Below are positions 1 through 22,989 of a DNA stretch of 64,000 nucleotides, one piece after another. The stretch comes from a virus: UHGV virus genome UHGV-1558314, one strand, 5' to 3'. The notes beneath the pieces are model-generated. The model was not told the origin of the DNA, ran no database searches, and worked only from the letters and a program-made list of their open reading frames with translations. The translations under genes were made by a program, and so were the position numbers. Every line of letters begins with the position of its first letter. The stretch's first letter is position 1.

Positions 1-365
1 CAACGAGGCAAATAACGTTCAATGCATTCAACTGCAGGATTGGCTGTCATGTACCACGCAAATTCTGCAGCAGCATTGAGCTTTTTCCATGGTCGTACGT
101 CAATCTTGATTTGCCGCTGTGAAGGGTCCTGAATAACTACAGACACATTCAGCAATTCTTTTGTTCGAGTCACTGTTTGTGCATTGTTGCCCTTTGATTC
201 TACAAACTCACCTCTACAATGAAGTTCATACAAAATTGAGCGAAATGCTTCTGTTGCAGTGTTTTCAATGATTGTCGTCTGTTGATAACATAAATTTGAC
301 GACAATGCTTCAGCATCATTGTACTTTATGCTGTCATTGTCATAAGGTGAATTTTTTGTGTGCAT
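1..365 (-). CDS. partial ORF running off window start (first ~121 aa); weak thymidylate-synthase-family-like region
   Basis: Own minus-strand translation: ATG at 365-363, open to position 1 (MHTKNSPYDNDSIKY...RPWKKLNAAAEFAWYMTANPAVECIERYLPR). Absent from ORF track because truncated. EFxWY resembles the ELLWF/ELEWY helix of ThyA/pyrimidine hydroxymethylases, recalled from memory only. Confidence 0.4.
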   Translation of the reverse strand, partial: MHTKNSPYDNDSIKYNDAEALSSNLCYQQTTIIENTATEAFRSILYELHCRGEFVESKGNNAQTVTRTKELLNVSVVIQDPSQRQIKIDVRPWKKLNAAAEFAWYMTANPAVECIERYLPR

Positions 366-389: not shown

Positions 390-1484
390 TCATACAACGA
401 CGGTATCTCGTTTGCAATCTGTTCTGTCGAATATCGAGCAACAATATGATGCAGATTGCTCTTTGATTGCAATAGCTTCGTCATTGTCAAGTGATGAAAT
501 ACCATCTATGTATGCTTTTGTATTGCCAGCGATGTCATCATTTGTTAGCAATGCTGCACGACGTTCAGTACCAAAGAAGCCAAAGCACAATTGACGCTGC
601 AATGCTTCACGAGAAATCTTGTCATCAAACTCGGATTTCATGTGTTGCATAAATTCGACAATATCATCAATGTCGCATTGAGTAAAGTCAATGTACAATT
701 TATGCATGTACTTGAATCGTTTGTAGTCTGTTGCAAGAATTTCTGGGTGCACAATGAACAACGTCTTTTTGCTGTCTATTGGATTTGCAATGACTGACGC
801 TTGAACATAATCAACAAGCACGCCAGATTCACGAAGTTGCTCAACTGTTTTGCCAAATATATGCCCAAACGTGTCATCAAACCACTTCAAGTATACTTCG
901 TTGTCTTCATCTTTTGATGCGCCAACAATGTAAATCTCATTGACTCCAAGCGCTTTAAGACGAGTGTCAGATAGCATCGTGTTCAATTGATGCTGCACAT
1001 ACAGCATTGGGCTGCTATGCAAAACTGTTTTGACAATCTCACAAGCAATGTCCATATATGCATAGTCAAGCTTTGCAGATTTTGACACATACACTGCACG
1101 TTGCTGCAATGGCTCAATTGCTGAGCATGTGGTCACAAAGTTGCCAACACATTCTGCTACTGCAATGTCATGCAAGTCATCTGCAATGTACACAATACTT
1201 GACAAGTCATCAAATGTTTGAACAAGTTGCTGAAGCTTTGTTTTGTAATTGCAGAGCATCAATGACTTGATGTTGCAATTGCCAAGCATTGTCTTGATGA
1301 GTCGTTGACCTGCTTCAGTGCTGTCACCAGAAATGACATGCACATCGCAGTCAAACCAGTTCAACATGTCGATTGCATGCCGAACGCCATATTGCATTTG
1401 TTTTGCGAACTTGCCAGATTCATTGAACAGCATTTCACCTGACATAATGCCGTCAAAGTCACATACGATTTGAAGTCTGTCCAT
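390..1484 (-). CDS. HAD-superfamily phosphatase, KdsC-like N-terminal domain plus uncharacterised C-terminal domain
   Basis: HAD motifs VCDFDGIM (DxDG), ISGDS, IADDLHD in the first ~165 aa; pattern resembles KdsC/YrbI sugar-phosphate phosphatases. Confidence 0.55.
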   Translation of the reverse strand: MDRLQIVCDFDGIMSGEMLFNESGKFAKQMQYGVRHAIDMLNWFDCDVHVISGDSTEAGQRLIKTMLGNCNIKSLMLCNYKTKLQQLVQTFDDLSSIVYIADDLHDIAVAECVGNFVTTCSAIEPLQQRAVYVSKSAKLDYAYMDIACEIVKTVLHSSPMLYVQHQLNTMLSDTRLKALGVNEIYIVGASKDEDNEVYLKWFDDTFGHIFGKTVEQLRESGVLVDYVQASVIANPIDSKKTLFIVHPEILATDYKRFKYMHKLYIDFTQCDIDDIVEFMQHMKSEFDDKISREALQRQLCFGFFGTERRAALLTNDDIAGNTKAYIDGISSLDNDEAIAIKEQSASYCCSIFDRTDCKRDTVVV

Positions 1485-1848: not shown

Positions 1849-4800
1849 TTAACAAATTGATGACGTGCCATCAGTATTTGCTACAACTGTCAATGCACTA
1901 TCAAACTCATCTTGTTGCAATACATGGTCAACTATGAGTGTTTTGCGAATTGCAGAAAGCTTGGTAAGCAACTGCATCAACACTTGCTGATAATTGATAT
2001 TGTTGACATCATGCTCAGCGCCAACAATCTGCCCATTGCTAAGCTTGCCACTGATTTCGTCAATGAGCAAGATGTTGCCCACTTTGTTTAAGCGTTGAGT
2101 CAAAATGAGATGCACGATTGCAAGACCTGCGAAAGTTCCTTCCATGCCAGACATTTGACTTACACTTCGAATTGACTTCGAGCCCATCAAGTCAATCATC
2201 TTCAACACATTGTTGTCATTGATGTCAAAGAACACTCGGTAGTTCAATGAATCCAGCAAATCATTGAGCTGTGCATTCAGTGATGTTGCAATTGCTGCAA
2301 AGACATATGAAACTAAGCCTCGTTTGCTTGTGCACTGCTTATATGCATTGTACACCAAGTTTGCAATGTTCCACTTTTTCGAAGCTTGCAAATCTTTCTT
2401 GAGAGCTTCAATTCGCACATTGTTTGCTGATAAGTCTGCTTGCATTGTTGCAATTTCTGCATTGATGCTTAGCAGTTTTGAGTTCGCTTCAGTTTCATGC
2501 TGCTTAGCATCATCAATGTCGACTTGCAATGCAGCATTTGTTGTAATATGCTGCTGAGTTTGCTGTGCATGTTCAAGTGCAAATGCTGCAGCAGTCTTAT
2601 CAATCTCAAGTTGTTTAAGCGCAGACTCATATGTCGCTTTCTTATCATACTCTGCTTGAGCAATTTCAAGTTCAGCATTTATTGCAGCCAGTTCTGATTC
2701 TACTGTAGATTTTGATTGCAATACATCTTGCTTTGCTTGTTCAGCTTTACGTTTGATGTCTGCAAGTTGATTTGTGATATCTGCAATTTGCATTTTGACT
2801 GCTTCGACTTCAAGCAATGTTGCTGCAGTAGCCATTGGTTGTGCAATGAATGCATCTAAGTCTCTTTGCGCATTGACTACAGTTCTCTGCAAATCATTGA
2901 GCTTTTCTGCATGCATGTCATATGCTGCTTTGTGTGCTGGATTCAGTGCAGCAATTATTGCATTTGAATCTGTAACATCTATGATTGCTGCTTGCAGTTG
3001 CTCAATTTCATACTTCAAATTGCCAATTTTGACAACATTCTCATTGAATTGCTCTGTCTTTTGCGCACATTCTTGACGCAACTTAGCAAGCTCAGTTGAC
3101 AACCACAGCTTGTATGCTTGTCCTGTGCCAGATGTCAAGTCATTTGTACATACAGGGCATTTGTCGTTTTCAAGTTGCTTTTGCTTGTCTATAACATTGT
3201 CGATGTTTGTTTTTGCAGCAGATATTTCTGTTCTAAGTGCATTTTGAACAGTGTTGATGTCTTCAATTTGCTTTTGCAAAGCATCTATTTTTGCCCGAGT
3301 GTTTGCATTGTACGACTTGCCAAGATTTATCAGCACAGAATCAATGTGCTGCTTTGCTGCATCATATGCAAGCTTTGATTCATCAAGCTTTGTTCTGTAC
3401 AATGACTCTGCATGCGCAACTTCTTTCTGCACTTTTGCAGATAGCTCATTCTGTTTTGTAAGCAGCTCAGCATATGTATTGTGCAGCTGTGAGCCAGATG
3501 CTATGACATTTGTGTATGCTGTATTAGCTTCATTGTCAATATTAGTGAGTTGCTGCTCAATCTGTGCTTTTGCTGTTTGCAACTTAGACATATCTTGCAA
3601 TGCAAGTGCAGCAATGTCAAGCTCAACTTTGTGAATCTTTGCAATGATGCCATCGATATTTGCTGTTGCATCTTCTATAGTTAAGATGTCTGCAGGAATT
3701 TGATGTAGTTTCTTTGAGAGCTCTTCTACTTTTGCACGAGCTTTTGTAAGCTTCGCGGACCACTCTTTTTGATTATCTTGTCGTAACTGCAAAGAGTAAT
3801 TGAGTTCATTGCAAGTTGTATTGAGAGACTCAAGTTCTGCTTTTATTGCAACATCAGTCAATGCGGGCTTACTAAGGCCATCAAACAATGCAGCCTTTGC
3901 AGCATCATTAGAATTGCCAAGCTGTACAAATGTATTGATGCCAAGAGTATCAAGTAGCCAGTCATTCAATGAATTTGAGTCCATTGCAATGATTTGGTCA
4001 AGTAGTGTCTGATTGATACAAACATATCGCGACAATTCCCAGATAGAGCCAAAGATTGCATATAGCGTGTCTTTGATTTCATGCTGCGGCACTACGTAGT
4101 CATCTGACAATCTTACAAGCTGAACAGTCTCATTGACTGCTGACACGTTATCTCGCCATGAGCCATCTGCATTTATTCGAGAACCTCGTTTGAATTTGCG
4201 TTCAAGTGTTCGAATCAATTTGTAGTGAACATTTTGACCTGCTACTACATGCACAAAGACACAAGAAGCTTCAAGCTTATCATATGACTCATTGTCAATC
4301 AATTTGTCATTGAAGTATGTCAAAGCGTTCTGCTTTGTTGCTGCAGAAGACTGTTCAGCGTCAATAAAGCCAGTCAGCAGCCATTTGATAAGTCTGAAGA
4401 TTGTAGTCTTGCCATTGCCATTGTTGCCTCTAACTTGTGTAAGCTGTGCAAGATTGTCAAAGCTGACATCAACATCTTTCAATGCCATGAACTGATTTGC
4501 TTTAACATTTTGAATGACATATTTTGCAACTTCAGTGTCAAAAGACAATTTATCAATTTGTTCATCAATCAATGACTTGAACATGTCAACAAACTGCTGA
4601 GCATCTTCAGTAGCAACTATGGCATTGCGTTCAATGTATGCATTGACCCAGTCAAGTGCAGCGTCTTTAAGCCATTCAGCAGTTTGAACCTTTTGCAGCA
4701 AATTGTCGCCATTTGCGTCTACAGCATTGATTGAATCAATGACAGCAGAATCATACAGAATGTCAATTGCAGCAACAACATATGAACTTACAAGATTCTG

Positions 4801-5775
4801 TGCAATGCGCTCAACAATACCAGACAGTTCGGGCTTTGTGACCTTTGACTTGATTTTGATTTTATTGATGCGGCCAGGGTTGATGAGTGCAATCTTGTCT
4901 GTTTTGACATCATTATCAATTGTGATTGTATGATAATGCACAAGCTGCTCAAGTGGATGCCACTCTACCACAATTCGCTTGTTGTCAATATCGATGTCAA
5001 GCAAGTTGTAGCCATGTTCTGCAGTACCATGCTGTATTGCAGTGTCATTCAACAAATAGTCGCCTTCACCAAAATCTCTGACAATTGGCGAGCCGCAATA
5101 TGTTAATGTCTTATCACCAGCAACCCATATTGCATGCTTATGAATGTCACCCATTGCAACAAAGTTGCTATTAAATTGCATTGCATCTATACGACTGTCA
5201 TTGTCACCACGAACAATACAATCATCAAAGTTGACACAATTCTTTACAGGGTCATGGAACAGCTCAATGACACACATTGATGACAATGCTGCAATCTGCG
5301 ATTCATCAAGTGATGCCCAAGGCGAATATGTGCCACCAGACCACTTCTCATTTTGAGCCCATACTGCAGCAGCAAAACCAGGTGCAAGCAGTTCAACTCT
5401 TGAACTGTTGATATACTTGATTCGCTTGTCATCAATTGCAGTTACAAGCTTGTCAATGCTATCTGTCCACTGCATTTGTGAACCATCACCAGCATCAAAT
5501 GTGTTATCACGTTGCTTCAAATCATGATTGCCAGCAGTAATGACAATTTGAAGCTTGTCATTGACTTCAAGCATGCCTTTGAGCAGCTTAACAAACAGCG
5601 ACTCTTCAAGTGAATTGCTATTCCAATGCTCAAACACGTCGCCGACAATGAATACAAACTCAACTGACTTTGCTTTGTCAATTAGTTGTTTGTTGATGTG
5701 CTCATATTCTACGAAACGTCGTAAATGACCTTGTCGAACATTATATTGAATGTCTGCTATGTGAAGTGCTTTCAT
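1849..5775 (-). CDS. fused Mre11/SbcD-like nuclease and Rad50/SbcC-like ATPase
   Basis: N-terminal metallophosphoesterase motifs (LHIADIQ, GDVFEH, GNHD, GDIHKH); Walker A GNNGNGKTT; long coiled coil with CPVC zinc hook; C-terminal signature SGMEG, Walker B LLIDE, H-loop DHV. Confidence 0.8.
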   Translation of the reverse strand: MKALHIADIQYNVRQGHLRRFVEYEHINKQLIDKAKSVEFVFIVGDVFEHWNSNSLEESLFVKLLKGMLEVNDKLQIVITAGNHDLKQRDNTFDAGDGSQMQWTDSIDKLVTAIDDKRIKYINSSRVELLAPGFAAAVWAQNEKWSGGTYSPWASLDESQIAALSSMCVIELFHDPVKNCVNFDDCIVRGDNDSRIDAMQFNSNFVAMGDIHKHAIWVAGDKTLTYCGSPIVRDFGEGDYLLNDTAIQHGTAEHGYNLLDIDIDNKRIVVEWHPLEQLVHYHTITIDNDVKTDKIALINPGRINKIKIKSKVTKPELSGIVERIAQNLVSSYVVAAIDILYDSAVIDSINAVDANGDNLLQKVQTAEWLKDAALDWVNAYIERNAIVATEDAQQFVDMFKSLIDEQIDKLSFDTEVAKYVIQNVKANQFMALKDVDVSFDNLAQLTQVRGNNGNGKTTIFRLIKWLLTGFIDAEQSSAATKQNALTYFNDKLIDNESYDKLEASCVFVHVVAGQNVHYKLIRTLERKFKRGSRINADGSWRDNVSAVNETVQLVRLSDDYVVPQHEIKDTLYAIFGSIWELSRYVCINQTLLDQIIAMDSNSLNDWLLDTLGINTFVQLGNSNDAAKAALFDGLSKPALTDVAIKAELESLNTTCNELNYSLQLRQDNQKEWSAKLTKARAKVEELSKKLHQIPADILTIEDATANIDGIIAKIHKVELDIAALALQDMSKLQTAKAQIEQQLTNIDNEANTAYTNVIASGSQLHNTYAELLTKQNELSAKVQKEVAHAESLYRTKLDESKLAYDAAKQHIDSVLINLGKSYNANTRAKIDALQKQIEDINTVQNALRTEISAAKTNIDNVIDKQKQLENDKCPVCTNDLTSGTGQAYKLWLSTELAKLRQECAQKTEQFNENVVKIGNLKYEIEQLQAAIIDVTDSNAIIAALNPAHKAAYDMHAEKLNDLQRTVVNAQRDLDAFIAQPMATAATLLEVEAVKMQIADITNQLADIKRKAEQAKQDVLQSKSTVESELAAINAELEIAQAEYDKKATYESALKQLEIDKTAAAFALEHAQQTQQHITTNAALQVDIDDAKQHETEANSKLLSINAEIATMQADLSANNVRIEALKKDLQASKKWNIANLVYNAYKQCTSKRGLVSYVFAAIATSLNAQLNDLLDSLNYRVFFDINDNNVLKMIDLMGSKSIRSVSQMSGMEGTFAGLAIVHLILTQRLNKVGNILLIDEISGKLSNGQIVGAEHDVNNINYQQVLMQLLTKLSAIRKTLIVDHVLQQDEFDSALTVVANTDGTSSIC

Positions 5776-5854: not shown

Positions 5855-6199
5855 TTATTTTGCAAGCATTTTGCTGATTGCATCTATCACAGTTTCACTG
5901 AGCAAGTAGTAGACAACGCTTATCAGCAATGATATCAGTACTGCAGCTGTGATAAATTGCAACGCATTCACAATTGCACGCACAAATGTTATCTGTGTGT
6001 TGTATGCAAGCACTATGCAGCATAGCACAATAATGACACACCAGACTACAATTGCATATGCAGGCATCAATGAATTTGTCCATATGCAGTACAATACAGT
6101 AGTTAGCATCAAAAATGCTATTGCTCTGATGACTGACACAATGATGTCTATGTAGAGCTTCATTACACGTAAATGAACTCTTGGCTTATGCGGTTTCAT
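5855..6199 (-). CDS. small multi-pass membrane protein (GtrA-like size and topology; speculative)
   Basis: Three to four hydrophobic helices. ORF-track start 6265 overlaps upstream gene; likely start at 6199 or 6163. Confidence 0.4.
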   Translation of the reverse strand: MKPHKPRVHLRVMKLYIDIIVSVIRAIAFLMLTTVLYCIWTNSLMPAYAIVVWCVIIVLCCIVLAYNTQITFVRAIVNALQFITAAVLISLLISVVYYLLSETVIDAISKMLAK

Positions 6200-7437
6200 C
6201 ATGACTTTATGTACAATTCTGCAAGTTGTCTGGTGTACAATCGTGGATTGTGATATGCTTTCCAATATGCAGTAGACTTTATTGCAGCAAGAATCTCATC
6301 ATAATGTTTGACTGCTTTTGCTACAACTTCATCAAGTACATGCAAATCTTCTACACTAACAAGCAGCCATTTTTCTACAATGTCAATGAATTCTTGATTG
6401 CAATTAAAGCCATATTTGTAGTTGCAAGTGTCAAGTACAAGTGGGATGCAGTCATTTGTCAGTGCTTCAAAAAATCTACGAAGACTGAAACAATTCTCAT
6501 CATATGATGGAATGCTTAATGTAAACTTGGCAGTCTTGATGAGTTGCAAATACTCTTCGTATGGAATCAGAGGACCATTGTGCTTCCACTGATTGTTATG
6601 TCGTCTTGTTGTGTACTTGAACAAAAACTTTGAACTGTCAAGCTCACAAAGATGGTCCATGCGTAAAATGTAGTTATAGCGGTCTCTTCTATCAGGCCAA
6701 CTGTCAGTCATTGCAAACACAAAGTCTCTTTGCTTGTCACATTTTGCTGACATACCTCTATGCTGACACATGCAGTACCAATATTGCTGCGATGGACTGA
6801 ACTCGAACTTTGAGTGATGCTCACTGCCATCTTTGCATTGTTGAACGTAAATATTGTCAGGCACAAAGTGAAAGTAGAAATGTCGAATTTGCAAGCCGTC
6901 AATGTAGTCAAGCTTATGCTGCAATGGGTCCTCACAGAAATTGTAACACTGAATGCGTTTTGCTGCAGCATACTCAGCAACTATGAATGTGCACACCCAT
7001 TGCAATGCGATGTCTTCACTCTTCAAAAAGTCAACAAGTGGCTCATTTGGATGCGCTTTGCATTCATTGAACATTTTGTACCACTTGCATTGCTCCATGT
7101 CATACTTGGAGACTGTATTGCCATTAAAAAATGACACAGTATCAATTTTGAATGCCTCAAGTTGTTTATGCACAATGTCGATTGCTTGTGCATATGTGAC
7201 AGTCTCATCAGACATTATTTGTGCAAACTTGATTGGATGCGCATGCAAATTTGCAATTGTGTCTGCTGACATTTTGCGCTGTGTATGATAATCGACATAC
7301 AAAAACTGACACTTGTCTGTAAGCAATTCAAGCATTGCTACAGATTTCCATCGAATTGCTTGAAAGAAATTGAAGTGCGCAGTTTGAAAAATGAGATGCG
7401 TAGGCTTGTCAGAATGAGTCAAAGTTTGCATGGACAA
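6199..7437 (-). CDS. glycosyltransferase-like protein (exostosin/GT47-like C-terminal motif), paralog of 10462..12018
   Basis: Shared motifs with 10462..12018: NFCEDPLQHKLDYID, PSQQYWY, FTLSIPSYDENCFSLRRFFEALTNDCIPLV (S-x-R-x-x-E...C-I/V-P-L-V). Confidence 0.5.
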   Translation of the reverse strand: MSMQTLTHSDKPTHLIFQTAHFNFFQAIRWKSVAMLELLTDKCQFLYVDYHTQRKMSADTIANLHAHPIKFAQIMSDETVTYAQAIDIVHKQLEAFKIDTVSFFNGNTVSKYDMEQCKWYKMFNECKAHPNEPLVDFLKSEDIALQWVCTFIVAEYAAAKRIQCYNFCEDPLQHKLDYIDGLQIRHFYFHFVPDNIYVQQCKDGSEHHSKFEFSPSQQYWYCMCQHRGMSAKCDKQRDFVFAMTDSWPDRRDRYNYILRMDHLCELDSSKFLFKYTTRRHNNQWKHNGPLIPYEEYLQLIKTAKFTLSIPSYDENCFSLRRFFEALTNDCIPLVLDTCNYKYGFNCNQEFIDIVEKWLLVSVEDLHVLDEVVAKAVKHYDEILAAIKSTAYWKAYHNPRLYTRQLAELYIKS

Positions 7438-8594
7438 ATGTCGCAGTTATGTTGATGTTTGTGTTTATTTATGAAGTCATATGTCACTGCAAAAAAGTGC
7501 TTTGCAATGTCATATCGAGTTTTCAAATATGCTGCTTGTCGTTCACAAAATGCTGCATAAATATCTGGGTGTTGTTTGAATGCTGCAATGCGTTGCTGTA
7601 CTTGTTCTGCAGAATGCACATATGACACTTTGCTCAAATATACATCATCTGCAAATAATCGTTTGTCTTTGTCAACTGCGCAATCAACAAAAGTTGCAAT
7701 TCGTGCAACAATTGCTTCACCGACACGATTTGGTATTAGCCCATATTGCTCATATTGCTGTTCGCCGATAGCAATGTGTGCTGCTGCATATGACATTGCA
7801 TATGGCACACTATAAAATGGCACACTAAAATCAAATGAACAATTTGACTGCAGCAATTGTGTTTGTGCATCAGACAATCTACTTGTCAAGTTGCCTGTAT
7901 ATTTGTGCTCACCAAGAAAACTTGAGCGACAGCCTGAATCTACATAGTATCGAATGACTTTGTTTATGCGACTGTCAGATAGCATATGCCAATCTCTTGT
8001 AGCATATATCAAGTCTACTGTTTTTGCGCCAATATGACGAGGCTCTATCGCAACATTGCTGTATGTTGGCAGCATAAACAATGGCAGCCATTTGACATTG
8101 TTGAACACTGAATGCTCATTTGACAAATTCATGCACTGGCTAAGTTCAAGTACTGGCTCATCATACACGCCATGTAGCTCAACTCTGCCTGCATGCACAA
8201 AGTTGACACGCTTAAATGGAAATCGCATATCAGTGCAAACTGTCATTCTTGCTGCAATAGACATTCGCCACATAGCATGCAGCTTAACAACTGCTTCTGC
8301 TTGAGGTCGAGGCAACATATTTAGCAAATCAATCCAGCCGCCCCACAAAATCCAAACATCATTTGAACAGATGTTGAATTGCAAACTCAATATGTCTTCT
8401 ACTGTTGTAGCAATAATGTCATGCCCATTGATGCTTGCAAGGTGTTTTCGTTGATTTGCAATAATAATGACTTGACTGAATGGAGACTCTGGAAATGACA
8501 CAAGCGCTTTTGCAAACAACACGGGTTCTTGCGACACCAAGTTGTTTGAGTATGGGTCGATTATGCAATCAAGCTTGTGTATGAAGAGTCTCAT
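7419..8594 (-). CDS. hypothetical protein, paralog of 12015..13181 (second gene of duplicated module)
   Basis: Shared segments with 12015..13181 (ILWGGW/IFWQGS, MRFPFKRV/LRFDFDKE, LIPNRVGEAIV/LLPNRWVEGVL); overlaps upstream gene by 19 nt. Confidence 0.5.
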   Translation of the reverse strand: MRLFIHKLDCIIDPYSNNLVSQEPVLFAKALVSFPESPFSQVIIIANQRKHLASINGHDIIATTVEDILSLQFNICSNDVWILWGGWIDLLNMLPRPQAEAVVKLHAMWRMSIAARMTVCTDMRFPFKRVNFVHAGRVELHGVYDEPVLELSQCMNLSNEHSVFNNVKWLPLFMLPTYSNVAIEPRHIGAKTVDLIYATRDWHMLSDSRINKVIRYYVDSGCRSSFLGEHKYTGNLTSRLSDAQTQLLQSNCSFDFSVPFYSVPYAMSYAAAHIAIGEQQYEQYGLIPNRVGEAIVARIATFVDCAVDKDKRLFADDVYLSKVSYVHSAEQVQQRIAAFKQHPDIYAAFCERQAAYLKTRYDIAKHFFAVTYDFINKHKHQHNCDICPCKL

Positions 8595-9325
8595 TTTGCA
8601 GATGATTCAAAAAATTTGTAGACATCGCAGTTAGCAATGTGGTCATTCCAAGCATCTTCAGAGTCTGCAACAAAGCCACAATGACAGCGTTTTGGCTGCC
8701 AAACTGGTTCAACTACTGCAGGCATTGCTTCTTCAATAGTGTTTGCAGGTTCATTATCTGCTGGCAATACTTCAACGTCTTCAACTTGTGCTGCATCTTG
8801 TTGTGCACGCTGCTCAATGACATTGCCCTCAAAGTCAAACTGAATGCCAGCTTGTTCTGCTTTTGTACGATTATTACGAGCTACGAACAAATACGCAAAG
8901 ATGAATTCGACAAGCGCTATGGCAAGTGACTTCAGTGCATTGACAAGAAGCATGATGCCTGTTGATAAATGGCCGTCAAAGCTCAAAAACACGAACACAC
9001 ATGTAAAGCATGACATAAACACTGCAATCAGTGGAATGTTCTTGTATTTTGGCAACAAATCAGAGTTGACTGATGTAAGCAACACAACGAATTGATAACC
9101 TATTGCAAGCCAATAGTCGCCAAACACTGCATAGATATGCGTAGTGATGCCAATAAGAAATGTGATAGTCACAATCATAATGAGCAACACACTTGTCAGA
9201 AAGTCTGCAATAGAATTGCTGAGCTTGTCATACCAGTGTTTGTTGACAATTGACGTGTTGGCTACGCGCACTTTACTAAGTGCATCTATGCCGCTTTTGA
9301 TATTTGATTGTGCTTTCATACACAT
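8591..9325 (-). CDS. membrane protein with C-terminal Cys/His cluster
   Basis: Several hydrophobic helices; C-terminal CHCGF...HIANCD. Confidence 0.5.
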   Translation of the reverse strand: MCMKAQSNIKSGIDALSKVRVANTSIVNKHWYDKLSNSIADFLTSVLLIMIVTITFLIGITTHIYAVFGDYWLAIGYQFVVLLTSVNSDLLPKYKNIPLIAVFMSCFTCVFVFLSFDGHLSTGIMLLVNALKSLAIALVEFIFAYLFVARNNRTKAEQAGIQFDFEGNVIEQRAQQDAAQVEDVEVLPADNEPANTIEEAMPAVVEPVWQPKRCHCGFVADSEDAWNDHIANCDVYKFFESSAK

Positions 9326-9331
9326 ATAACG

Positions 9332-9469
9332 TTATATCATATCTACACACAAAGCAAATGCTACTGCAAGTGCAGCCATAATTGCATATACGACTATCGA
9401 TGCAGTATAATCTGATTCAGGATTCCACTTATCAGGTGTGTTAAGCTTGTGATACTTGTCTCGTCTCAT
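9332..9469 (-). CDS. small ORF (45 aa) with C-terminal hydrophobic helix, below ORF-track cutoff
   Basis: Own translation: MRRDKYHKLNTPDKWNPESDYTASIVVYAIMAALAVAFALCVDMI. Confidence 0.25.
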   Translation of the reverse strand: MRRDKYHKLNTPDKWNPESDYTASIVVYAIMAALAVAFALCVDMI

Positions 9470-9572
9470 CTTGAGTCAAAAAATGATGGCTGCTGCTACA
9501 TTTTGTGAAATCATGTGCAGCAGCCATCTGGCAGGTTTCTTGCTTTGTAAAGCTTGGATAGAGGATGGATTT

Positions 9573-9623
9573 TATATGTTGATATTGTACAACATGCAAA
9601 ATGTATTTGCATTTTGATACAAC
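9573..9623 (-). promoter_or_regulatory. conserved intergenic motif copy 2
   Basis: tatatgttgatattgtacaacatgcaaaatgtatttgcattttgatacaac; near-identical to copy 1 (2-3 substitutions). Confidence 0.45.
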
Positions 9624-9631
9624 ATATATTG

Positions 9632-9847
9632 TCATTTTGCACAGTCTGATGCAATTAAATCTTTGTCAAAGCATTCATCTATAATGTCTTCAATAAGATA
9701 CGCTTCGACATTGTTAAGCTTCAAGATATCTACGAGTTTTGCTTTGATATCGCAAGCTAATGCAGATTCGACTGTATGCAATATGACTGATGATACGACA
9801 TGCTTGTCTGTCATCATTTGTAATTGCTGTGGTGTTACTCTACTCAT
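9632..9847 (-). CDS. hypothetical small protein
   Basis: 71-aa ORF abutting the kinase-like gene. Confidence 0.35.
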   Translation of the reverse strand: MSRVTPQQLQMMTDKHVVSSVILHTVESALACDIKAKLVDILKLNNVEAYLIEDIIDECFDKDLIASDCAK

Positions 9848-10416
9848 GCGCCAAGTTCAGCTAAGCATTTCAACACATTGTCTTGCAGACTTGCATTGTT
9901 GTCAATTTCGACAATATGCAATGGTGAGTTCTTTCGCCACTCATCATATGCAGCAATCATTTCATTGCGTTTGCTGACATCAATGTTGACATCACCGCAA
10001 AAATTATCGACAAAATCTGGCACAACATCACGCTTGCATAAGAACACTACGTGCGGCAATGTTGCAAGCTTCTTTTCATATGCTTCAAAGAATGCTTGAT
10101 GCTTATCAGTGTGCAGCTCTTTGTAAAGCGTTGTGTTGAAGATTTGATGCGTGATGAATGAACGGTCACACAAAAACGTTGCTTTGCCAAAGCCTTGAGA
10201 GTCATTTCCAATGAACTCTAAGAAGAAGCGCCAATCATAAAAGAACGCTTCATTGAGGTCCCAAGGTTCGGGCATTGGGTCATCACCTGACTCATGCTGC
10301 TGCCACCAAGAACGAGATGTTCGTTTGCAATTGATAAACCATGGGCGCCACTTCATCAATTCATTGATGAGTGTTGTTTTGCCTGAAGCTTCTACACCTT
10401 CAAATATCGCTATCAT
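9844..10416 (-). CDS. P-loop nucleotide kinase (dNMP kinase / thymidylate-kinase-like)
   Basis: N-terminal IAIFEGVEASGKTT Walker A and FLCDRS (DRY/DRS-like) motif; resembles phage dNMP kinases and thymidylate kinases. Confidence 0.55.
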   Translation of the reverse strand: MIAIFEGVEASGKTTLINELMKWRPWFINCKRTSRSWWQQHESGDDPMPEPWDLNEAFFYDWRFFLEFIGNDSQGFGKATFLCDRSFITHQIFNTTLYKELHTDKHQAFFEAYEKKLATLPHVVFLCKRDVVPDFVDNFCGDVNIDVSKRNEMIAAYDEWRKNSPLHIVEIDNNASLQDNVLKCLAELGA

Positions 10417-10461
10417 TGTGTATTATGTTTGATTTTTGATTACAGTACAACGTAGTTATGC

Positions 10462-12018
10462 TCATTGCACTTCTACGAATGGCTCTTTCAACACAAAGCT
10501 GTCACCATTGCAACATGCGGCTGAGCCATCGTCTGCATCAAGTGCGCATGACATATCAGACTTGCAGAACTTGCAATATGAACATGACCATGCATGACTC
10601 ATAAAGTTGTTTGCTTCACAAATTACACAGCGCTCATGTGAAAGTGTATTGTCGCAATTGTCACAAGACTTCTTGATTGGCACATCTTTATTGATATATG
10701 CAAGATGCAATGCAATATCATACACAAAGTCACCCGTATATTGCTGAATGAAATCAGTGTGCCACAACTCTTTTAACAATTGTGTATGTCTATATGGCTG
10801 AACAATGTCTTCAAGATGCTGCAAGTCATCATCGCTAACCATGAGCTTCTTAATGACAAACTGTTTGAACTGCGGCCATCTGTCAAACATATAGAGTTTG
10901 CATGAGTTGTGCACAAGTGGAACACAGCCAAGCACAATGCTTTCACAGAATCTACGCAAACTAAAACAGTTTGCATCATATGACGGCACAATCAATGTGA
11001 ATCTGCTATGCTTGATGAGTTCAAGGTATGTGTCATATGGCAGTAGCTTGTCTGACAATGGCTGCTGTTGCTTGTCCCTGCTGAAAAATCTGAACACAAT
11101 GCCTTTATCAATTGCATCTTGATTGTGCAGATGCATGAGTTTGTTGATGAGTTCTGTGCGTTCAGTTTTGTCTCGCCAAGTATTCGTCAATGCAAATGCA
11201 AAATTCAGTCGCTTGTCATCAAACGTCGCTTCAATGTCATCCCAAGTTTTGTCATGCAAATACCAGTATTGCTGTGATGGGCACCATCCATAATATGCAA
11301 TAGCGTCTTGTTCTGCTGTAACGTCATACACATATGCAGAATTGTATTCAAGGCCAAGCCCTTTGACATTGTTGCAGTCATGAAAGTACCAATGCTGCAC
11401 TTTGAATATCTTTGATGCACTGAATGCGCTTTCATATGGCCCTGAATAGCGATAGTCAATGTAATTGAGCTTGTGCTGCAATGGGTCTTCGACAAAGTTG
11501 TTTATGACTGTGCCTTGTTGTTTGCCATTAGTCTTGCGAGCATTCAATGCAATATTGTACTGCATAATGACTGACAGCATCTCATACACTACATACATGA
11601 GTGCTTTGTAGACTGAGCCTGCTGCGTCAATTAGCGGCAAATCACGTTTGACTGATGCAGTACCAAATGTCTTGCAATATGCAGAAAATGTATCAAGTTC
11701 TGCCTGTTGAAATGAATTGCATGCGCCATTGAATATGTTGAATGTTGCAATGTAGCTCATATTACAAGATGTCATTGACATATCAAGACGCTTCATAATG
11801 TCAGCAATGCGACATTGAGCAAAATCTGACACATCAACATATTTGACATGATGACCTGATGCAGTCAAGCCAACTGCGACTTCTTTCATTTGTGGCACAA
11901 AGCCTACTACAATGAACAAGTCATCTTTGTTTGCTCGTTCAAACATTGCTGCACTTTTCCAAGTCAATGAATTGAAAAAGTCTATGTAGCCAGTCTGTGT
12001 GATGATATGTGTTCTCAT
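10462..12018 (-). CDS. glycosyltransferase-like protein (exostosin/GT47-like motif) with C-terminal Cys-rich extension
   Basis: NFVEDPLQHKLNYID, PSQQYWY, FTLIVPSYDANCFSLRRFCESIVLGCVPLV; Cys-rich tail (CDNCDN...CVICE...CSYCKFC). Confidence 0.5.
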   Translation of the reverse strand: MRTHIITQTGYIDFFNSLTWKSAAMFERANKDDLFIVVGFVPQMKEVAVGLTASGHHVKYVDVSDFAQCRIADIMKRLDMSMTSCNMSYIATFNIFNGACNSFQQAELDTFSAYCKTFGTASVKRDLPLIDAAGSVYKALMYVVYEMLSVIMQYNIALNARKTNGKQQGTVINNFVEDPLQHKLNYIDYRYSGPYESAFSASKIFKVQHWYFHDCNNVKGLGLEYNSAYVYDVTAEQDAIAYYGWCPSQQYWYLHDKTWDDIEATFDDKRLNFAFALTNTWRDKTERTELINKLMHLHNQDAIDKGIVFRFFSRDKQQQPLSDKLLPYDTYLELIKHSRFTLIVPSYDANCFSLRRFCESIVLGCVPLVHNSCKLYMFDRWPQFKQFVIKKLMVSDDDLQHLEDIVQPYRHTQLLKELWHTDFIQQYTGDFVYDIALHLAYINKDVPIKKSCDNCDNTLSHERCVICEANNFMSHAWSCSYCKFCKSDMSCALDADDGSAACCNGDSFVLKEPFVEVQ

Positions 12019-13181
12019 GATTTGAATGTTTGTTCAAGAATTGTGTAACACTGCACAATCATTACTGCAAGAGCTTTTTGCTGTGCTTGTTTGCAATCAT
12101 CAAAATTTGTGGGCGCAGTGCGTACGCGTGTTTTGCTATTAAGTGTCGCAAATGTCGCGTAGTCATCGAAGCCTATAATGTCAGCAAATAGGGCAATTGG
12201 CTTATAATCTACAAGTATGTTGCAGCAATTTGCAAGTACGCCTTCAACCCATCGATTTGGCAGCAAGTCTGCTTGCACATACAATGAATCACCAACTACA
12301 AGATTGTATGCCGACTGTGACATTACACGCGGCATTGCATCGTATGTGACTTTGTATTTAAGTGTAAAGTTTGGTGCTGCTGATTTAATCGCAGACAAAA
12401 TTGTGTCATCAAGATATGATGTTATGAGACACGTGTCGCACATATGTATGACAAATTGTTCAATCACACTTCTACGATACTCGTCAAGATATGTGAAACC
12501 TGCACAACTTGCACAGCATGCATATTGCTGCTTTATGTCAGCAAAGCTACGCACATGAGCTTCAATTGCATTTTGCATCGTTACTTGTAGTTTAAGCAAT
12601 CTTGGCTCTTTAATGTATTGAAGCTTCAATGCATTGACTGCTGCAATGATTTGCAATGGGGCAAACACACATTGAGACTCATCAAGCCAAGCGTATTTGA
12701 GATTTTTGTGCTGGCATAGATGCGTAATGTTGTCTTTTTGTGATTCTAAGTACTCTTTGTAATTGTGCAATCGCTTTGTCAATGTGCATTCTTTATCAAA
12801 GTCGAATCGCAAATCAGTTGTTAGTGTAAATTTGCGAGCGTTTGACAAACACCATGTTTTGAATGCATTCCACAGAACATCTTGCTGAAATTCTGAGCAA
12901 TGTTCAAGAGCAGCCTTTGAACCTTGCCAGAATATTGCGCAATCATCTGATTTTGCGCACTTCAGCATATCTTGCCATGCATGTATGTTATTGATAATAT
13001 GCACATTATCATACACAAGCTCATCAAGTATTGCATGCTTGTTCTCAGGGTCGCCAAACACATATACAGCATCAAACATTGTCTGCACAAAACCTGCAAA
13101 TGCAATAGGTTCTGTATGCTTAAGATGCTGTACGTCTGAACGCACGCATGTGTCAAATTTCAAAATGAATAGTTTGCTCAT
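12015..13181 (-). CDS. hypothetical protein, paralog of 7419..8594
   Basis: See 7419..8594; overlaps upstream gene by 4 nt. Confidence 0.5.
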   Translation of the reverse strand: MSKLFILKFDTCVRSDVQHLKHTEPIAFAGFVQTMFDAVYVFGDPENKHAILDELVYDNVHIINNIHAWQDMLKCAKSDDCAIFWQGSKAALEHCSEFQQDVLWNAFKTWCLSNARKFTLTTDLRFDFDKECTLTKRLHNYKEYLESQKDNITHLCQHKNLKYAWLDESQCVFAPLQIIAAVNALKLQYIKEPRLLKLQVTMQNAIEAHVRSFADIKQQYACCASCAGFTYLDEYRRSVIEQFVIHMCDTCLITSYLDDTILSAIKSAAPNFTLKYKVTYDAMPRVMSQSAYNLVVGDSLYVQADLLPNRWVEGVLANCCNILVDYKPIALFADIIGFDDYATFATLNSKTRVRTAPTNFDDCKQAQQKALAVMIVQCYTILEQTFKS

Positions 13182-13878
13182 ATACTTTGCAATTATCTAT
13201 TACATGTTGATATTGTACTTCATCTATGATGTGATTTGCAATGACACCATATGAGGCGTCATACATTGGCATCTTCTCATATGACAATGCTGCGTCAAGA
13301 TTGCATATCACATAATTGCAATGCACAATGTCATCTACATTGTCACTAACTGCTACGATATTGACACACTTTGCAAGAAATGCATCATCAAAGTCTACTT
13401 GATTGCATGCAACCTCATAATCTGCTGCGCTTCTTGGGTACCAATATAACTCAATGCCAGCACTACTAAGTAGTCGCAAGCCATCTATGTGATGATACAA
13501 GTCAACAAAATGCACTTGCTTAACGCCTGCTTGCAAAATAAGCTTTGCGCAATCAATGCATGGACTGTATGTTACATACAGCACTGCGTCATTTGCGGTC
13601 GCATTGCCATATTTGCACAGCTTCATCAATGCGTTTGATTCTGCATGCAAAACTTCTTTGTTGGTTTTGATACCTGCCGATGTTGCATGCTCACAACAAT
13701 TTGACATGCCAGTTGGCATGCCATTGTAGCCATCTGAAATTATGCAACCATTTTTTACAAGCAATGCGCCAACTTTTGCTCGCTGAGCATATGAATTTAA
13801 TGACCAAAGCTCAGCCATTTTAAGATATATGAGATTTCGTTGAAACTGCTTTGTTTCAGACCAAGTTAGCCATTTCAT
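13153..13878 (-). CDS. dCMP deaminase (cytidine/deoxycytidylate deaminase family) with C-terminal extension
   Basis: Zinc-binding motifs VLHAESNAL (HxE) and SPCIDCAKLI (PCxxC). Confidence 0.85.
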   Translation of the reverse strand: MKWLTWSETKQFQRNLIYLKMAELWSLNSYAQRAKVGALLVKNGCIISDGYNGMPTGMSNCCEHATSAGIKTNKEVLHAESNALMKLCKYGNATANDAVLYVTYSPCIDCAKLILQAGVKQVHFVDLYHHIDGLRLLSSAGIELYWYPRSAADYEVACNQVDFDDAFLAKCVNIVAVSDNVDDIVHCNYVICNLDAALSYEKMPMYDASYGVIANHIIDEVQYQHVIDNCKVYEQTIHFEI

Positions 13879-13882
13879 ATGC

Positions 13883-15265
13883 TTACAGTGAGTTTATAAT
13901 TTTGATAAAGTCTGTTACAATGTTTGTATGCAACTCAATGAGATAGTTGTCTTGTAATGTCATAAGCTCATCAAGTTCATCTACACTTAATGACTTGAAG
14001 ACTTCTGCACAATGCTTGGCATTTTTGATGTGTGCGACTTTATGATACTTGATAAAGTCAGGACACACACAATTATTCACGTACATACAAGGCAAGCCTG
14101 CAAGCATTGATTCAGTTGCTCTGAATGTAATTGCGTTGCATTGTTTCATATTCTCTTCACACACAATGTATGCAAAGTCGAACTGCGACAAGTATGTTAA
14201 CATGTCAAAATACTTGATTGTGCCATTATAGACATGTGGCATATCAATGTCGATATTGCCGACAACATGAGTTTCGATGTCTGCGCAGCCAAGCAAATCA
14301 ATGACTTCTTGTTTGCGTTCAGCGCACATGTCATTCCAAGCAACCATCGGCATTGCAGTAGTCAACTTGCCTGATTGCAATTTTGCTAAACGTTTTTCGT
14401 TATGTGATGCATACAATGGAATGCCTTCAAGTCTTGCATGCTGAATTGTGTTGACATTGATTTCTGTCAGCATTGACAACGCATTATGCATGTTCTGTGC
14501 TTGTGTGACAACTGTCATCTTTTTGCAGCGCAATCTAAAGTTTGCAATGTGTGGCACGAGTCGTAAATCATACCACAGCCATACAATGTCACCCTTCCAT
14601 GACTCAATAAGCTGCTTGTGCTGTTTGTAGATGACTGACTGACTCATCAAGTCATTCATTGCTGAGCATACAATGTACAACACACCATATTTGTCAATTG
14701 AGTGCTGCACATAGTCAACTGAGCAGCATAGCACATCTTTGTCGAAAAGTTTTGGGTCATGCACTTCTGCATCATCTACAATAAGATGTGCCTTGTATTG
14801 ATGCTGCTTTGTTGCATCAATGATGCGAGCAATTGCAAAGCATTCTCTACTTTGAATGTCTGTCTTATCTTGTCGTGGTTGGTCTTGTGTTCGTACAGGA
14901 TATGCAGGCTTAAGTATTACAGGCACAAAATGTGTTTTTGCAGAATATGGTGCATCTACTGCAGCAAACTCCGCGTTGCATCGTTGTGAATGCAGATGTC
15001 GTGCATATGATTGCAACAATTCATGAATCATTGCAATGTACTCTTTCAATTCAAACAGCTCGTGTACAGTTGCGTTTGTTATGTCGACTACGACAGTTTG
15101 TCGCACAATTGGATACACACAAATAACGTAATCATTATATGATAGTGGAATGCCTATAAATGCTGAGCATCTGTTTCGAAGCCATGCAATGCAATCAGCG
15201 TCAAACACAATTTCATATTGCTGCTGCAAAGCATTTAATTGCGCTATAATCAAATCATTGTGCAT
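13883..15265 (-). CDS. GT-B fold glycosyltransferase (GT1/GT4-like)
   Basis: C-terminal FAYIVCEENMKQCNAITFRATESMLAGLPCMYVN resembles the E-x7-E / EAMA-G-P donor-binding motif. Confidence 0.45.
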   Translation of the reverse strand: MHNDLIIAQLNALQQQYEIVFDADCIAWLRNRCSAFIGIPLSYNDYVICVYPIVRQTVVVDITNATVHELFELKEYIAMIHELLQSYARHLHSQRCNAEFAAVDAPYSAKTHFVPVILKPAYPVRTQDQPRQDKTDIQSRECFAIARIIDATKQHQYKAHLIVDDAEVHDPKLFDKDVLCCSVDYVQHSIDKYGVLYIVCSAMNDLMSQSVIYKQHKQLIESWKGDIVWLWYDLRLVPHIANFRLRCKKMTVVTQAQNMHNALSMLTEINVNTIQHARLEGIPLYASHNEKRLAKLQSGKLTTAMPMVAWNDMCAERKQEVIDLLGCADIETHVVGNIDIDMPHVYNGTIKYFDMLTYLSQFDFAYIVCEENMKQCNAITFRATESMLAGLPCMYVNNCVCPDFIKYHKVAHIKNAKHCAEVFKSLSVDELDELMTLQDNYLIELHTNIVTDFIKIINSL

Positions 15266-15405: not shown

Positions 15406-15440
15406 CACAAAACAAGCAGACTGCAATTGCAGTCTGCTTG
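15405..15440 (-). terminator. rho-independent terminator after gene 15488..16033
   Basis: Perfect 28-bp palindrome caagcagactgcaattgcagtctgcttg followed on the minus strand by TTTTGTG. Confidence 0.6.
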
Positions 15441-15487
15441 CACTTGTTATTAACCCTTAAAATCAATGACACTATGTCAATGTCATT

Positions 15488-18057: not shown

Positions 18058-18375
18058 TTATTGCATATTGTCGACAATCAGTTGTTCAAGTGCAATAGCT
18101 GACAATGCACCAGTTGCACGACCAGCTTCAATGCAATCACGAAAGACAATTGTCGTTGGTACTGAACGAACATTATGAGTGCTATCAAGCTCATCGCACT
18201 CTTCAACATTCACTTCAGCAAATGTCACCTTGCCATTGAATTTCTTTTCAGTTGACTCGAAAATTGGTGCATAGCCTTGACAAGGCACGCACCATGGCGC
18301 ACTGAACTTCACTACAACGAGTTGATTGTTTGCAAGTGCTCGAGCCATTTCGGCTTTATGTTTGAGTTGCAACAT
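18058..18375 (-). CDS. thioredoxin
   Basis: Active site WCVPCQ (WCxPC) in a ~105-aa protein. Confidence 0.85.
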   Translation of the reverse strand: MLQLKHKAEMARALANNQLVVVKFSAPWCVPCQGYAPIFESTEKKFNGKVTFAEVNVEECDELDSTHNVRSVPTTIVFRDCIEAGRATGALSAIALEQLIVDNMQ

Positions 18376-21852: not shown

Positions 21853-22989
21853 TTATCTTGCATGACCGCAATCGTACACTGCAACATAACCAGCATCAAT
21901 CATAGTCTGTTCATCTTGACCACAGTCTTCAATGTGCTCTTTTGTCTTCAAATGACACCAGTGCTTACGAATTGTTGACTTGTCATCTGACAGTTGCGGA
22001 TTGAGCACAAAATCAGTTGAGTCTACTTGTTCACCTGCAAGATGCTTTCTAATGGCGTCAATGACTTCGTTGTCATCCATCCATTCGAATATTGTAATGC
22101 AAGTGTAGCCATGTTTGAGAGCAAGTTGAGCTTTGTCGAAGTGGTAGAATTTGCCAACTGGCTTATTGTGTTTTGTGCGCCCAGTTAAATATGCAAAGCC
22201 ATATGTTGCATTGTGTGACCAAAGAGGATTAACTTCAATCAAAAGTTTGCAGTGTTCATTACAATAATCAAGGTCATATGACCATCGTCCAAGATTGACA
22301 TTATCAAGCCCGCAATCAATACCAAGTTCTTGCAGCAATTTGTCATGCCACCAATGGTTTGTTTGCGATTTTATATGACCTTGAGCATTACGGCATTTAG
22401 TAGTCATACAAAACCATGGCACACCATGTCGTTCCATATTGACTTCTTGAACGCGTTCAAGATTGCCGCTCTTATTGCCATAACGTTGCTGTTTTGTTTG
22501 CAATGCAGCATCAATATTGCCCCATGCATTGCCATATCGTTTTACAACAGTTTGTCTACGTTTTTCAACATCACAGCACTTATTGCCATATTTACGCAAT
22601 TTAGTGTCAAATGCTTTTTGTGTATTGCCTACGCCACGTTTGACCCATTTGCGCTCTTTGCCTTGTTGACATCGTTCTTGGTTACCCCATGTGCTGCCAT
22701 ATCGTTCTAAATTTGTTTGTCTACGTTTTTCAACATTGCCTGCTTTGCATCCATATCGTGCTAAATTTGTTTGTTGTTGTTTAGCTACGCAATCTTTGTT
22801 ACGTGCAGGAAATTCAACGCCTAATGAACGTAGACAGCCAATTCTACGATTATAATTACGTTTAATATTGCCGTGTGATGTTTTACAAGGCCCATATCTT
22901 ACAAACTCAGTTGTTCTCAACAACTCATCTCGCTCTTGCTCAAGCTCTGCAATGCGCTTCTCAAGAGCTTCACCAGTTAGTGGCGTCAT
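21853..22989 (-). CDS. homing-endonuclease-like protein: tandem ~20-aa RYG-x4-GN repeats plus Vsr/DUF559-like (PD-(D/E)xK) nuclease domain; paralog of 63182..63886
   Basis: About 7 repeats (NLARYGCKAGN, LERYGSTWGN, LRKYGNKCCD, VKRYGNAWGN, QQRYGNKSGN, MERHGVPW); C-terminal DLDY...KLLIEVNPLWSHN...LALKHGYTCITIFEW. Confidence 0.5.
   Translation of the reverse strand: MTPLTGEALEKRIAELEQERDELLRTTEFVRYGPCKTSHGNIKRNYNRRIGCLRSLGVEFPARNKDCVAKQQQTNLARYGCKAGNVEKRRQTNLERYGSTWGNQERCQQGKERKWVKRGVGNTQKAFDTKLRKYGNKCCDVEKRRQTVVKRYGNAWGNIDAALQTKQQRYGNKSGNLERVQEVNMERHGVPWFCMTTKCRNAQGHIKSQTNHWWHDKLLQELGIDCGLDNVNLGRWSYDLDYCNEHCKLLIEVNPLWSHNATYGFAYLTGRTKHNKPVGKFYHFDKAQLALKHGYTCITIFEWMDDNEVIDAIRKHLAGEQVDSTDFVLNPQLSDDKSTIRKHWCHLKTKEHIEDCGQDEQTMIDAGYVAVYDCGHAR

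Follow-up and report, generated by a model that had tools for sequence, protein, structure and literature searches.

Duplicated pairs of GT-B glycosyltransferase genes in a phage replication and nucleotide-metabolism block, with a proposed role in DNA hypermodification

Two pairs of adjacent glycosyltransferase genes are found in UHGV virus genome UHGV-1558314, of which one stretch of 64,000 nucleotides (nt), referred to throughout as the window, was analysed. The pairs are named A1 (6199..7437) with B1 (7419..8594) and A2 (10462..12018) with B2 (12015..13181), and a fifth gene related to the B type, B3, lies at 13883..15265. These and all the other genes given below with window coordinates are on the minus strand. 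In the order of transcription the locus runs from B3 through a deoxycytidine monophosphate (dCMP) deaminase, B2, A2, a kinase-like gene, a hairpin, a protein with four transmembrane (TM) segments, B1 and A1 to a small membrane open reading frame (ORF), which is followed by a fused Mre11/Rad50-like gene. The four paired ORFs are all present, in the places where an earlier reading of the DNA (the original prediction) had described a two-gene module occurring twice. Taken together the locus carries five GT-B genes, three of the B type and two of the A type, and it is almost certain that all five encode glycosyltransferases.

The duplication of the module is borne out by BLASTP. A1 (412 amino acids, aa) and A2 (518 aa) are 30% identical over 445 columns (E 5e-47), and B1 (391 aa) and B2 (388 aa) are 24% identical over 350 columns (E 8e-14). 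As these alignments are near full length and their statistics are composition-adjusted, the similarity of the copies is not one of low-complexity segments. The same gene order and the short overlaps that had been predicted are found in both copies, B being transcribed first and A second with overlapping stop and start codons. The B2/A2 overlap is the 4 nt ATGA at 12015..12018, while that of B1 and A1 is 19 nt with an A1 start at the TTG at 7437 and 13 nt with a start at the ATG at 7431; the latter is the likely true start and is the one used by gene calls in near-identical contigs. The diverged motifs cited as common to the copies, NF[CV]EDPLQHKL, PSQQYWY, FTL..PSYD.NCFSLRRF...C[IV]PLV and LIPNRVGEAIV / LLPNRWVEGVL, are all present and all fall in invariant columns of the family alignments. 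The two modules do not form a simple tandem repeat, since other genes and the terminator-like hairpin lie between them.

The overlapping gene of each module had been described merely as a partner, a description that has to be revised, as B is itself a glycosyltransferase and, on the comparisons that follow, a divergent homolog of the T4 DNA beta-glucosyltransferase (BGT; CAZy GT63, PF09198; PDB 1bgt, 1c3j) that keeps the catalytic and UDP-binding residues. B1 matches PHROG 7922 'beta-glucosyltransferase' (E 1.4e-7), and a profile of the B family searched against PDB sequences found T4 BGT (1bgt) with an E of 5e-8 over ~240 residues; a search of the PDB sequences with B1 as a single sequence gave no match. 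HMMER, run exhaustively over 1.84 billion representative proteins, recovered 240 relatives of B, and 27 of the 50 remote homologs sampled from these at full length matched PF09198. When T4 BGT was added to the alignment, equivalents of its E22, D100, R195, R269 and E272 were found to be kept in B1, B2 (as E24, D123, R236, R310 and E313) and B3, as well as in the B relatives on L001, L004 and L008 (L-numbers denote metagenomic contigs that carry relatives), with R269 replaced by K in two relatives. From published structures we take Asp100 and Glu22 to be catalytic and Arg195, Arg269 and Glu272 to bind UDP in the T4 enzyme; the T4 BGT sequence used is presumed to be correct and agrees with the stretch printed in the 1bgt match. 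The differences from T4 BGT are considerable. The window proteins are <20% identical to it; T4 BGT is basic and carries R191, whereas the B-type proteins are not basic, have L or M at that position and alone fall below the Pfam threshold. The T4 enzyme is also present as a single copy, in contrast to the three copies here, of which B1 and B2 are each paired with a member of a second GT-B family. B1 carries the cysteine-rich C-terminal tail HNCDICPCKL (7419..7450).

For that second family the fold itself is secure, as judged from a confident AF2 (AlphaFold2) model of A1 (pLDDT 88.6, pTM 0.85) that has the GT-B fold. The two Rossmann-like domains and the C-terminal nucleotide-sugar binding motifs of the GT-B superfamily are found in A1 and A2, and A2, the paralog by BLASTP, retains all of the invariant motifs of the A family. 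In the BFVD library of viral structures the second match to A is annotated 'DNA beta-glucosyltransferase', but a specific affinity of the modelled A fold to BGT is only suggestive, because Foldseek against the PDB gives just generic GT-B matches; the strong structural matches include the lipid and polysaccharide glycosyltransferases WlaC, PimA and BshA. Profile comparison by hhalign relates A to a broad BGT-like alignment (E 4e-5, 69% probability) through a common C-terminal Y-x9-R-x2-E donor-site motif, and finds no relation of A to the narrow B profile (probability 0.15), so that as whole sequences A and B are not detectably related by these comparisons. Neither A2 as a single sequence nor the A-family profile matched the PDB. 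The original prediction that A is GT47-like is wrong, or at best incomplete, as a family assignment. GT47/exostosin (PF03016) and A have the GT-B fold in common and a similar C-terminal donor motif, FTL.IPSYD..CFSLRRF.E....C.PL. However, the PF03016 scores of A1 (21.6 bits) and A2 (25.5 bits) do not reach the gathering score of 33.4 bits and are sub-threshold (E 1e-4 to 1e-5), covering profile positions ~160-260 of 293. Assignment to GT47 was rejected on account of this score, of the restriction of the match to ~100 C-terminal residues and of the closest structural neighbours, which are not GT47 enzymes. A further weak Pfam match of A is to Glyco_trans_1_2, and none of the five proteins has a Pfam match to PF20691, the GT-A family of TAGT, A being GT-B. 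A2 has a cysteine-rich C-terminal tail of ~70 aa with >10 Cys (10462..10690). A tail of this type is also seen in P0011 and P0012, and not in the A2 orthologs of L001 and L008; the Cys content of early-region proteins (6-15 kb) is 2.5-4.6%, as against 0.2-1.6% in large structural proteins.

The third BGT-like gene had been missed in the original prediction, as had the DNA and nucleotide-metabolism context of the two pairs, which are themselves real. B3 (460 aa) is highly diverged, carries an extra N-terminal region of ~115 aa and leads the upstream unit. Its relation to BGT-like proteins appears with profiles only; BLASTP of B3 against B2 or A2 was not significant, whereas residues 116-395 align to the broad BGT-like alignment (A3) with an hhalign probability of 98.3% (E 1.5e-14), and hmmsearch with the same BGT-like profile gives an E of 4.6e-17. 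The dCMP deaminase (13153..13878), identified by Pfam dCMP_cyt_deam_1 (E 5.5e-21) and PHROG 174 (E 5e-44), is flanked by B3 and B2 and overlaps the latter at its start. The P-loop nucleotide-kinase-like protein that follows A2 (9844..10416, 190 aa) has weak matches only, to PHROG 761 thymidylate kinase (E 9e-6) and, all below threshold, to Pfam AAA_28, Thymidylate_kin and dNK. The protein, which has a conserved counterpart in L001 (44% identity), is possibly a kinase for a modified deoxynucleoside monophosphate (dNMP). The terminator-like hairpin 3' of this gene (9476..9528, minus strand; folding energy -28.7 kcal/mol, z -5.2 versus shuffles) is directly followed by UUUUUU and divides the B3-deaminase-B2-A2-kinase unit from the membrane protein-B1-A1 unit. 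A perfect 13-bp palindromic stem occurs upstream of B3 at 15412..15441 and, together with the hairpin, bounds the upstream glycosyltransferase unit. A scan for sigma-70 promoters gave results at chance level.

Relatives of these genes are extremely scarce. Among 5.8 billion proteins the first search with the A family returned 12 sequence clusters, that of A2 included, and the first search with the B family returned five. In IMG/VR the A gene was found on one contig only, of 174.6 kb, which is near-identical to the window (97% identity to A1), none of the GTDB genomes scanned had a relative of A, and the 7-kb region had no megablast match among 50,697 phage records. With tblastn A2 and B1 made weak partial matches only, to Pseudoalteromonas phage XG4, Sphingomonas phage PAU gp180, Ralstonia phage RsoM2USA and an Enterococcus phage Planchet glycosyltransferase. 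The metagenomic contigs are more informative, with orthologs of each copy spread over L001, L008, L009, L010 and L012. L008 carries both pairs, in the order deaminase, B2, A2, kinase and, further on, TM protein, B1, A1. A further lineage, L012, has B3, deaminase, B2 and A2; L001 has B3, deaminase and A2 without B2 and, further on, TM protein, B1 and A1; L009 and L010 have TM protein, B and A, with a 70-aa gene sitting between B and A in L010. The most distant, L004, has one A gene and two B-like genes outside the B1 and B2 clades. Orthologs of A2 are present in L001, L008 and L012, those of B2 in L008 and L012, and those of B3, upstream of the deaminase, in L001 and L012. The number of glycosyltransferase genes among the relatives ranges from three to five, and adjacency of B then A, often with overlapping stop and start codons, is found in seven lineages.

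Neighbour-joining trees separate A1, A2, B1 and B2 into clades of their own, with congruent branching of the A and B trees. The window proteins are 31-51% identical to their orthologs on L008, as compared with 19-32% between paralogs. On these trees and identities the duplication is ancient, older than the split of the sampled lineages, because the metagenomic relatives carry orthologs of each copy, and the age that had been proposed for it is thus upheld; by the same comparisons B evolves faster than A. It is plausible, but not proven, that the pair was duplicated as one unit; one relative, L001, has A2 without B2. The further suggestion that the copies have diverged in function, for example towards two sugar additions, fits the retention of catalytic and donor-binding motifs in all of them, and the activities retained are probably distinct.

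The genes on either side of the pairs belong to a replication and nucleotide-metabolism block that includes a gp32-like single-stranded-DNA-binding protein (SSB), a helicase, a thioredoxin (18058..18375) and the Mre11/Rad50 fusion. The last of these (1849..5775, 1308 aa; PHROG 35725) joins an Mre11-like phosphoesterase to a Rad50/SbcC-like ATPase and comes immediately after the B-A pair, downstream of it, both in the window and in L001/L002, L004, L005 and L009, which are the contigs reaching that far. Two further genes lie ~5 kb beyond the glycosyltransferase genes along the strand. The second of them, cut by the window end, is the 5' part of a thymidylate-synthase (ThyA) homolog (6..263), whose N-terminal 86 aa within the window are 37% identical to a homolog on L001 (tblastn, E 5e-11). 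The full-length homolog is found at 17037..17918 of L005, a contig ~99% identical to the window. In both the L005 and the L001 proteins the catalytic Cys C146 is kept and the position of E. coli N177 is occupied by Asp, the cytosine-type state, residues being numbered on what we take to be the E. coli ThyA sequence. D169 is also kept, and the D169N signature of 5-hydroxycytosine synthases is thus absent. The best match among PDB sequences is the CMP (cytidine monophosphate) hydroxymethylase MilA (2e-23), ahead of thymidylate synthases and the T4 dCMP hydroxymethylase. Since D169 is retained and MilA is the best PDB match, hydroxymethylation rather than hydroxylation is inferred, and by sequence the homolog is likely to be a dCMP hydroxymethylase supplying the acceptor base. 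The L001 ortholog has an extra cysteine-rich, zinc-ribbon-like C-terminal extension. A ThyA-family gene that neighbours a remote B homolog on L011 was also considered as evidence of hydroxymethylation and was set aside, as it keeps H147 and N177 and resembles a canonical thymidylate synthase.

The ThyA homolog is separated from the Mre11/Rad50 gene by a gene for a 364-aa protein (390..1484) with an N-terminal KdsC-like HAD sugar-phosphate phosphatase domain (NCBIfam TIGR01670, E 1.9e-9; PDB 2p9j and KdsC, E 1.6e-4 to 1e-2), which is a candidate enzyme of a sugar-donor pathway. A homolog search with this protein returned two uninformative clusters only. The C-terminal half of the protein resembles the C-terminus of glucan phosphorylase only faintly (E 0.006).

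Membrane proteins bracket the B1-A1 pair. Directly upstream of B1, with a 4-nt overlap, is the gene for a protein of 244 aa (8591..9325) with ~4 TM helices predicted from hydropathy, an acidic linker and a zinc-finger-like C-terminus containing a conserved CxC-x15-H-x4-C motif. By BLASTP it is 47-63% identical to the gene in the same position in L001, L008, L009 and L010, and it is better conserved across lineages than the glycosyltransferases themselves. On the other side the end of A1 is overlapped by a small multi-pass membrane ORF (5855..6265, 136 aa, ~4 TM by hydropathy). ORFs of 100-129 aa with 3-4 TM segments come after A1 in L002, L008 and L010, and comparison of the window ORF with these detected no identity, their C-termini being vaguely similar.

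The reading that best accommodates these observations, and is somewhat favoured here, is that both pairs belong to a phage DNA hypermodification island in which 5-hydroxymethylcytosine (5hmC) is made and then decorated with sugars in the form of one or more oligosaccharides. The ThyA homolog would convert dCMP to 5-hydroxymethyl-dCMP, the P-loop kinase together with host kinases would raise this to the triphosphate, and the phage replisome would put the hydroxymethylated nucleotide into DNA, where the GT-B enzymes would move sugars from nucleotide-sugars to the hydroxymethyl group. B1, B2 and B3 would most likely act on the flipped-out base, and A1 and A2, each translationally coupled to a B, would most likely extend the first sugar. 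The old duplication may then have led to two different disaccharides, or to a longer or branched glycan. The expected benefit would be phage DNA that is resistant to restriction, CRISPR and glycosylase defences. Confidence differs between the parts of this scheme, DNA being quite probably the acceptor and the order of action, B then A, being put forward tentatively.

Known systems provide parallels for much of this. RB69, DLP3 and RL38J1 combine a ThyA homolog, a kinase and several GT-B enzymes to produce mono- to tri-glycosylated cytosines; building of the chain has been attributed to successive transferases, and the biosynthesis of tri-arabinosylated cytidine was shown to take place on DNA (Lee et al., NAR 2026, PMC13326640). 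The locus resembles those experimentally characterised clusters in that several GT-B transferases are grouped with a ThyA homolog, a HAD sugar-phosphatase and a thymidylate-kinase-like kinase, the kinase lying among the glycosyltransferase genes there as the P-loop gene does here (PMC13326640). The HAD phosphatase gene of DLP3 and RB69 is likewise beside the ThyA homolog, as at 390..1484. In contrast, the ThyA homologs of the three phages make 5-hydroxycytosine and carry D169N, where D169 is kept here; their glycosyltransferases are GT4-like and number two or three, as against five of the BGT-like and A families; and no genes for arabinose or UDP-sugar synthesis were recognised in the present locus. 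A second parallel is offered by the methyltransferase (MT)/TET (5mYOX) clusters, in which neighbouring glycosyltransferases take position-specific parts in the assembly of di- and trisaccharides on 5hmC, as has been reconstituted (Pyle et al., bioRxiv 10.1101/2023.12.21.572611). Their adjacent genes are comparable to the pairs described here in that one enzyme adds the first sugar to 5hmC and the other extends it, and their GT-B members resemble T4 BGT and carry an Asp equivalent to D100, as the B type does. However, the 5hmC of those phages arises post-replicatively through a methyltransferase and a TET-like dioxygenase and not, as proposed here, from the nucleotide pool by way of a ThyA-type enzyme, and their sequential class is GT-A (all GT-B in subclass III), whereas both partners are GT-B here. 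The alpha- and beta-glucosyltransferases of T4 are similarly GT-B paralogs derived from an ancient duplication and kept for counter-defence, and in T2 and T6 a second enzyme, TAGT, adds a second sugar to give gentiobiosyl-hmC (PMC13216743). That enzyme is a GT-A (PF20691), a family to which no counterpart match was found here. Phages with glycosyltransferases of more than one or two types are very few (PMC13216743), whereas this locus has five GT-B genes.

Several substantial caveats must be set against a DNA hypermodification island. The acceptor and the sugars are argued from homology and context. B1, B2 and B3 each lack a match to PF09198 at E up to 1 in single-sequence Pfam searches, so that the homology of B to T4 BGT is visible only at the profile level, and the AF2 model of B1, for which just 7 sequences could be aligned, was poor and unreliable (pLDDT 55, pTM 0.44) and was left unused for fold searching. 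The full ThyA homolog lies outside the window, its sequence being taken from L005. Neither a dCTPase nor genes for nucleotide-sugar synthesis were recognised in the window, in relaxed Pfam scans that included the neighbouring unknown ORFs. The isoelectric points (pI) of the glycosyltransferases are near-neutral, at 5.9-7.3, compared with ~9 for the basic T4 BGT; as a proxy for DNA binding the pI is not decisive, and the enzymes are still more basic than the median of the window proteome (pI 5.1). Finally, conserved membrane proteins flank B1-A1 in several lineages, and a soluble DNA-modifying pathway needs none.

Among the alternatives the one that survives best, although it is unlikely, keeps the DNA and gives up the chain. 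By analogy with the alpha- and beta-glucosyltransferases of T4, which split the 5hmC sites between them, B1, B2, B3, A1 and A2 may each glycosylate the modified base directly, differing in sugar, anomeric linkage or sequence context, in which case the duplication would have diversified monosaccharide marks. The strict adjacency of B then A in seven lineages suggests coupled steps instead, and there would be no precedent for five monosaccharide transferases working in parallel on a single base, whereas chains built by three enzymes are documented (PMC13326640).

Somewhat less probable again is an acceptor other than DNA, the membrane protein-B1-A1-small membrane protein unit glycosylating a lipid-linked glycan, an envelope polymer or a protein and so, for example, altering the host surface and blocking superinfection. 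This alternative is kept alive by the flanking membrane proteins, by the near-neutral pI and by the failure to recognise dCTPase or nucleotide-sugar genes in the window. It draws particularly on the conserved 4-TM zinc-finger protein and the small multi-pass ORF that bracket B1-A1 in several lineages, on the weak matches of A to Glyco_trans_1_2 and GT47 and its strong structural matches to WlaC, PimA and BshA, and on the fact that the enzymes are not basic. To our knowledge DNA is the only acceptor of GT63, whose catalytic signature the B-type proteins keep, and the glycosyltransferases themselves have no TM segments. The second module is embedded with the dCMP deaminase and the kinase without any membrane genes, all of these genes share the replication and nucleotide-metabolism block with a ThyA homolog of the cytosine type, and GT63 has been reported exclusively from phages (PMC13216743).

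The same misfits leave room for a membrane-tethered form of the DNA pathway, which is a still fainter prospect. The 4-TM zinc-finger protein, B1, A1 and the small membrane protein would form a heteromeric DNA-glycosylation machine that, with B3, B2 and A2, builds a tetra- or pentasaccharide on hydroxymethylcytosine. Were this true, no known DNA glycan would be more complex, and its maker would be a GT-B family (A) that had not previously been connected with DNA. Least probable of all is that each B-A pair is an obligate heterodimer on the model of the heteromeric GT-B enzyme GtfA/GtfB of streptococci, with one subunit catalytic, the other mainly binding or presenting the substrate and two or three functional enzymes in place of five, which is disfavoured by the invariant catalytic-base and donor-binding residues in both partners of all lineages, not expected of a non-catalytic subunit, by the retention in L001 of a fully conserved A2 without an adjacent B2, and by the 70-aa gene between B and A in L010.

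Some other features of the region deserve mention. The phage is uncultured, all that is known of it coming from metagenomic contigs. A host within the Bacteroidota is probable, in view of a BACON-domain protein (31259..31873) and of the nearest homologs of the ThyA protein, which occur in phages of Chryseobacterium, Bacteroides and Maribacter. From the near-identical IMG/VR contig of 174.6 kb (IMGVR_UViG_3300045988_152288) the genome is put at 175 kb or more. A homing-endonuclease-like gene (21853..22989) lies beside that of the gp32-like SSB, and a papain-like cysteine protease domain protein is encoded at 23723..24337. Two genes upstream of a remote B-like homolog, P0024 (L011 570..1907), there is a faint match to Peptidase_U32; in RB69, gp50 of the arabinosylation cluster has a match to 5d88, the structure of a predicted collagenase of the U32 type.

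That GT-B enzymes glycosylate phage DNA is well known, and so is the association of multi-transferase clusters with ThyA homologs. What is new at this locus is the A family as a candidate glycosyltransferase of a DNA pathway, the presence of three BGT-like paralogs within one genome, the conserved heterotypic B-A pairing and the membrane proteins that flank B1-A1. Glycosylated phage DNA withstands restriction enzymes, CRISPR nucleases and some of the enzymes used in sequencing and cloning, and any further DNA glycosyltransferase could become a tool with which to label 5hmC; the locus provides five candidates from two families that are extremely rare in public data. If the acceptor were not DNA, the T4 beta-glucosyltransferase family would have non-DNA members. 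Most likely, the phage sugar-coats its own DNA and so escapes bacterial nucleases, which is a known strategy but one that relies here on rare enzyme families not described before, and the range of three to five transferases among its relatives would offer a natural series on how the complexity of DNA glycans grows in the arms race with host defences.

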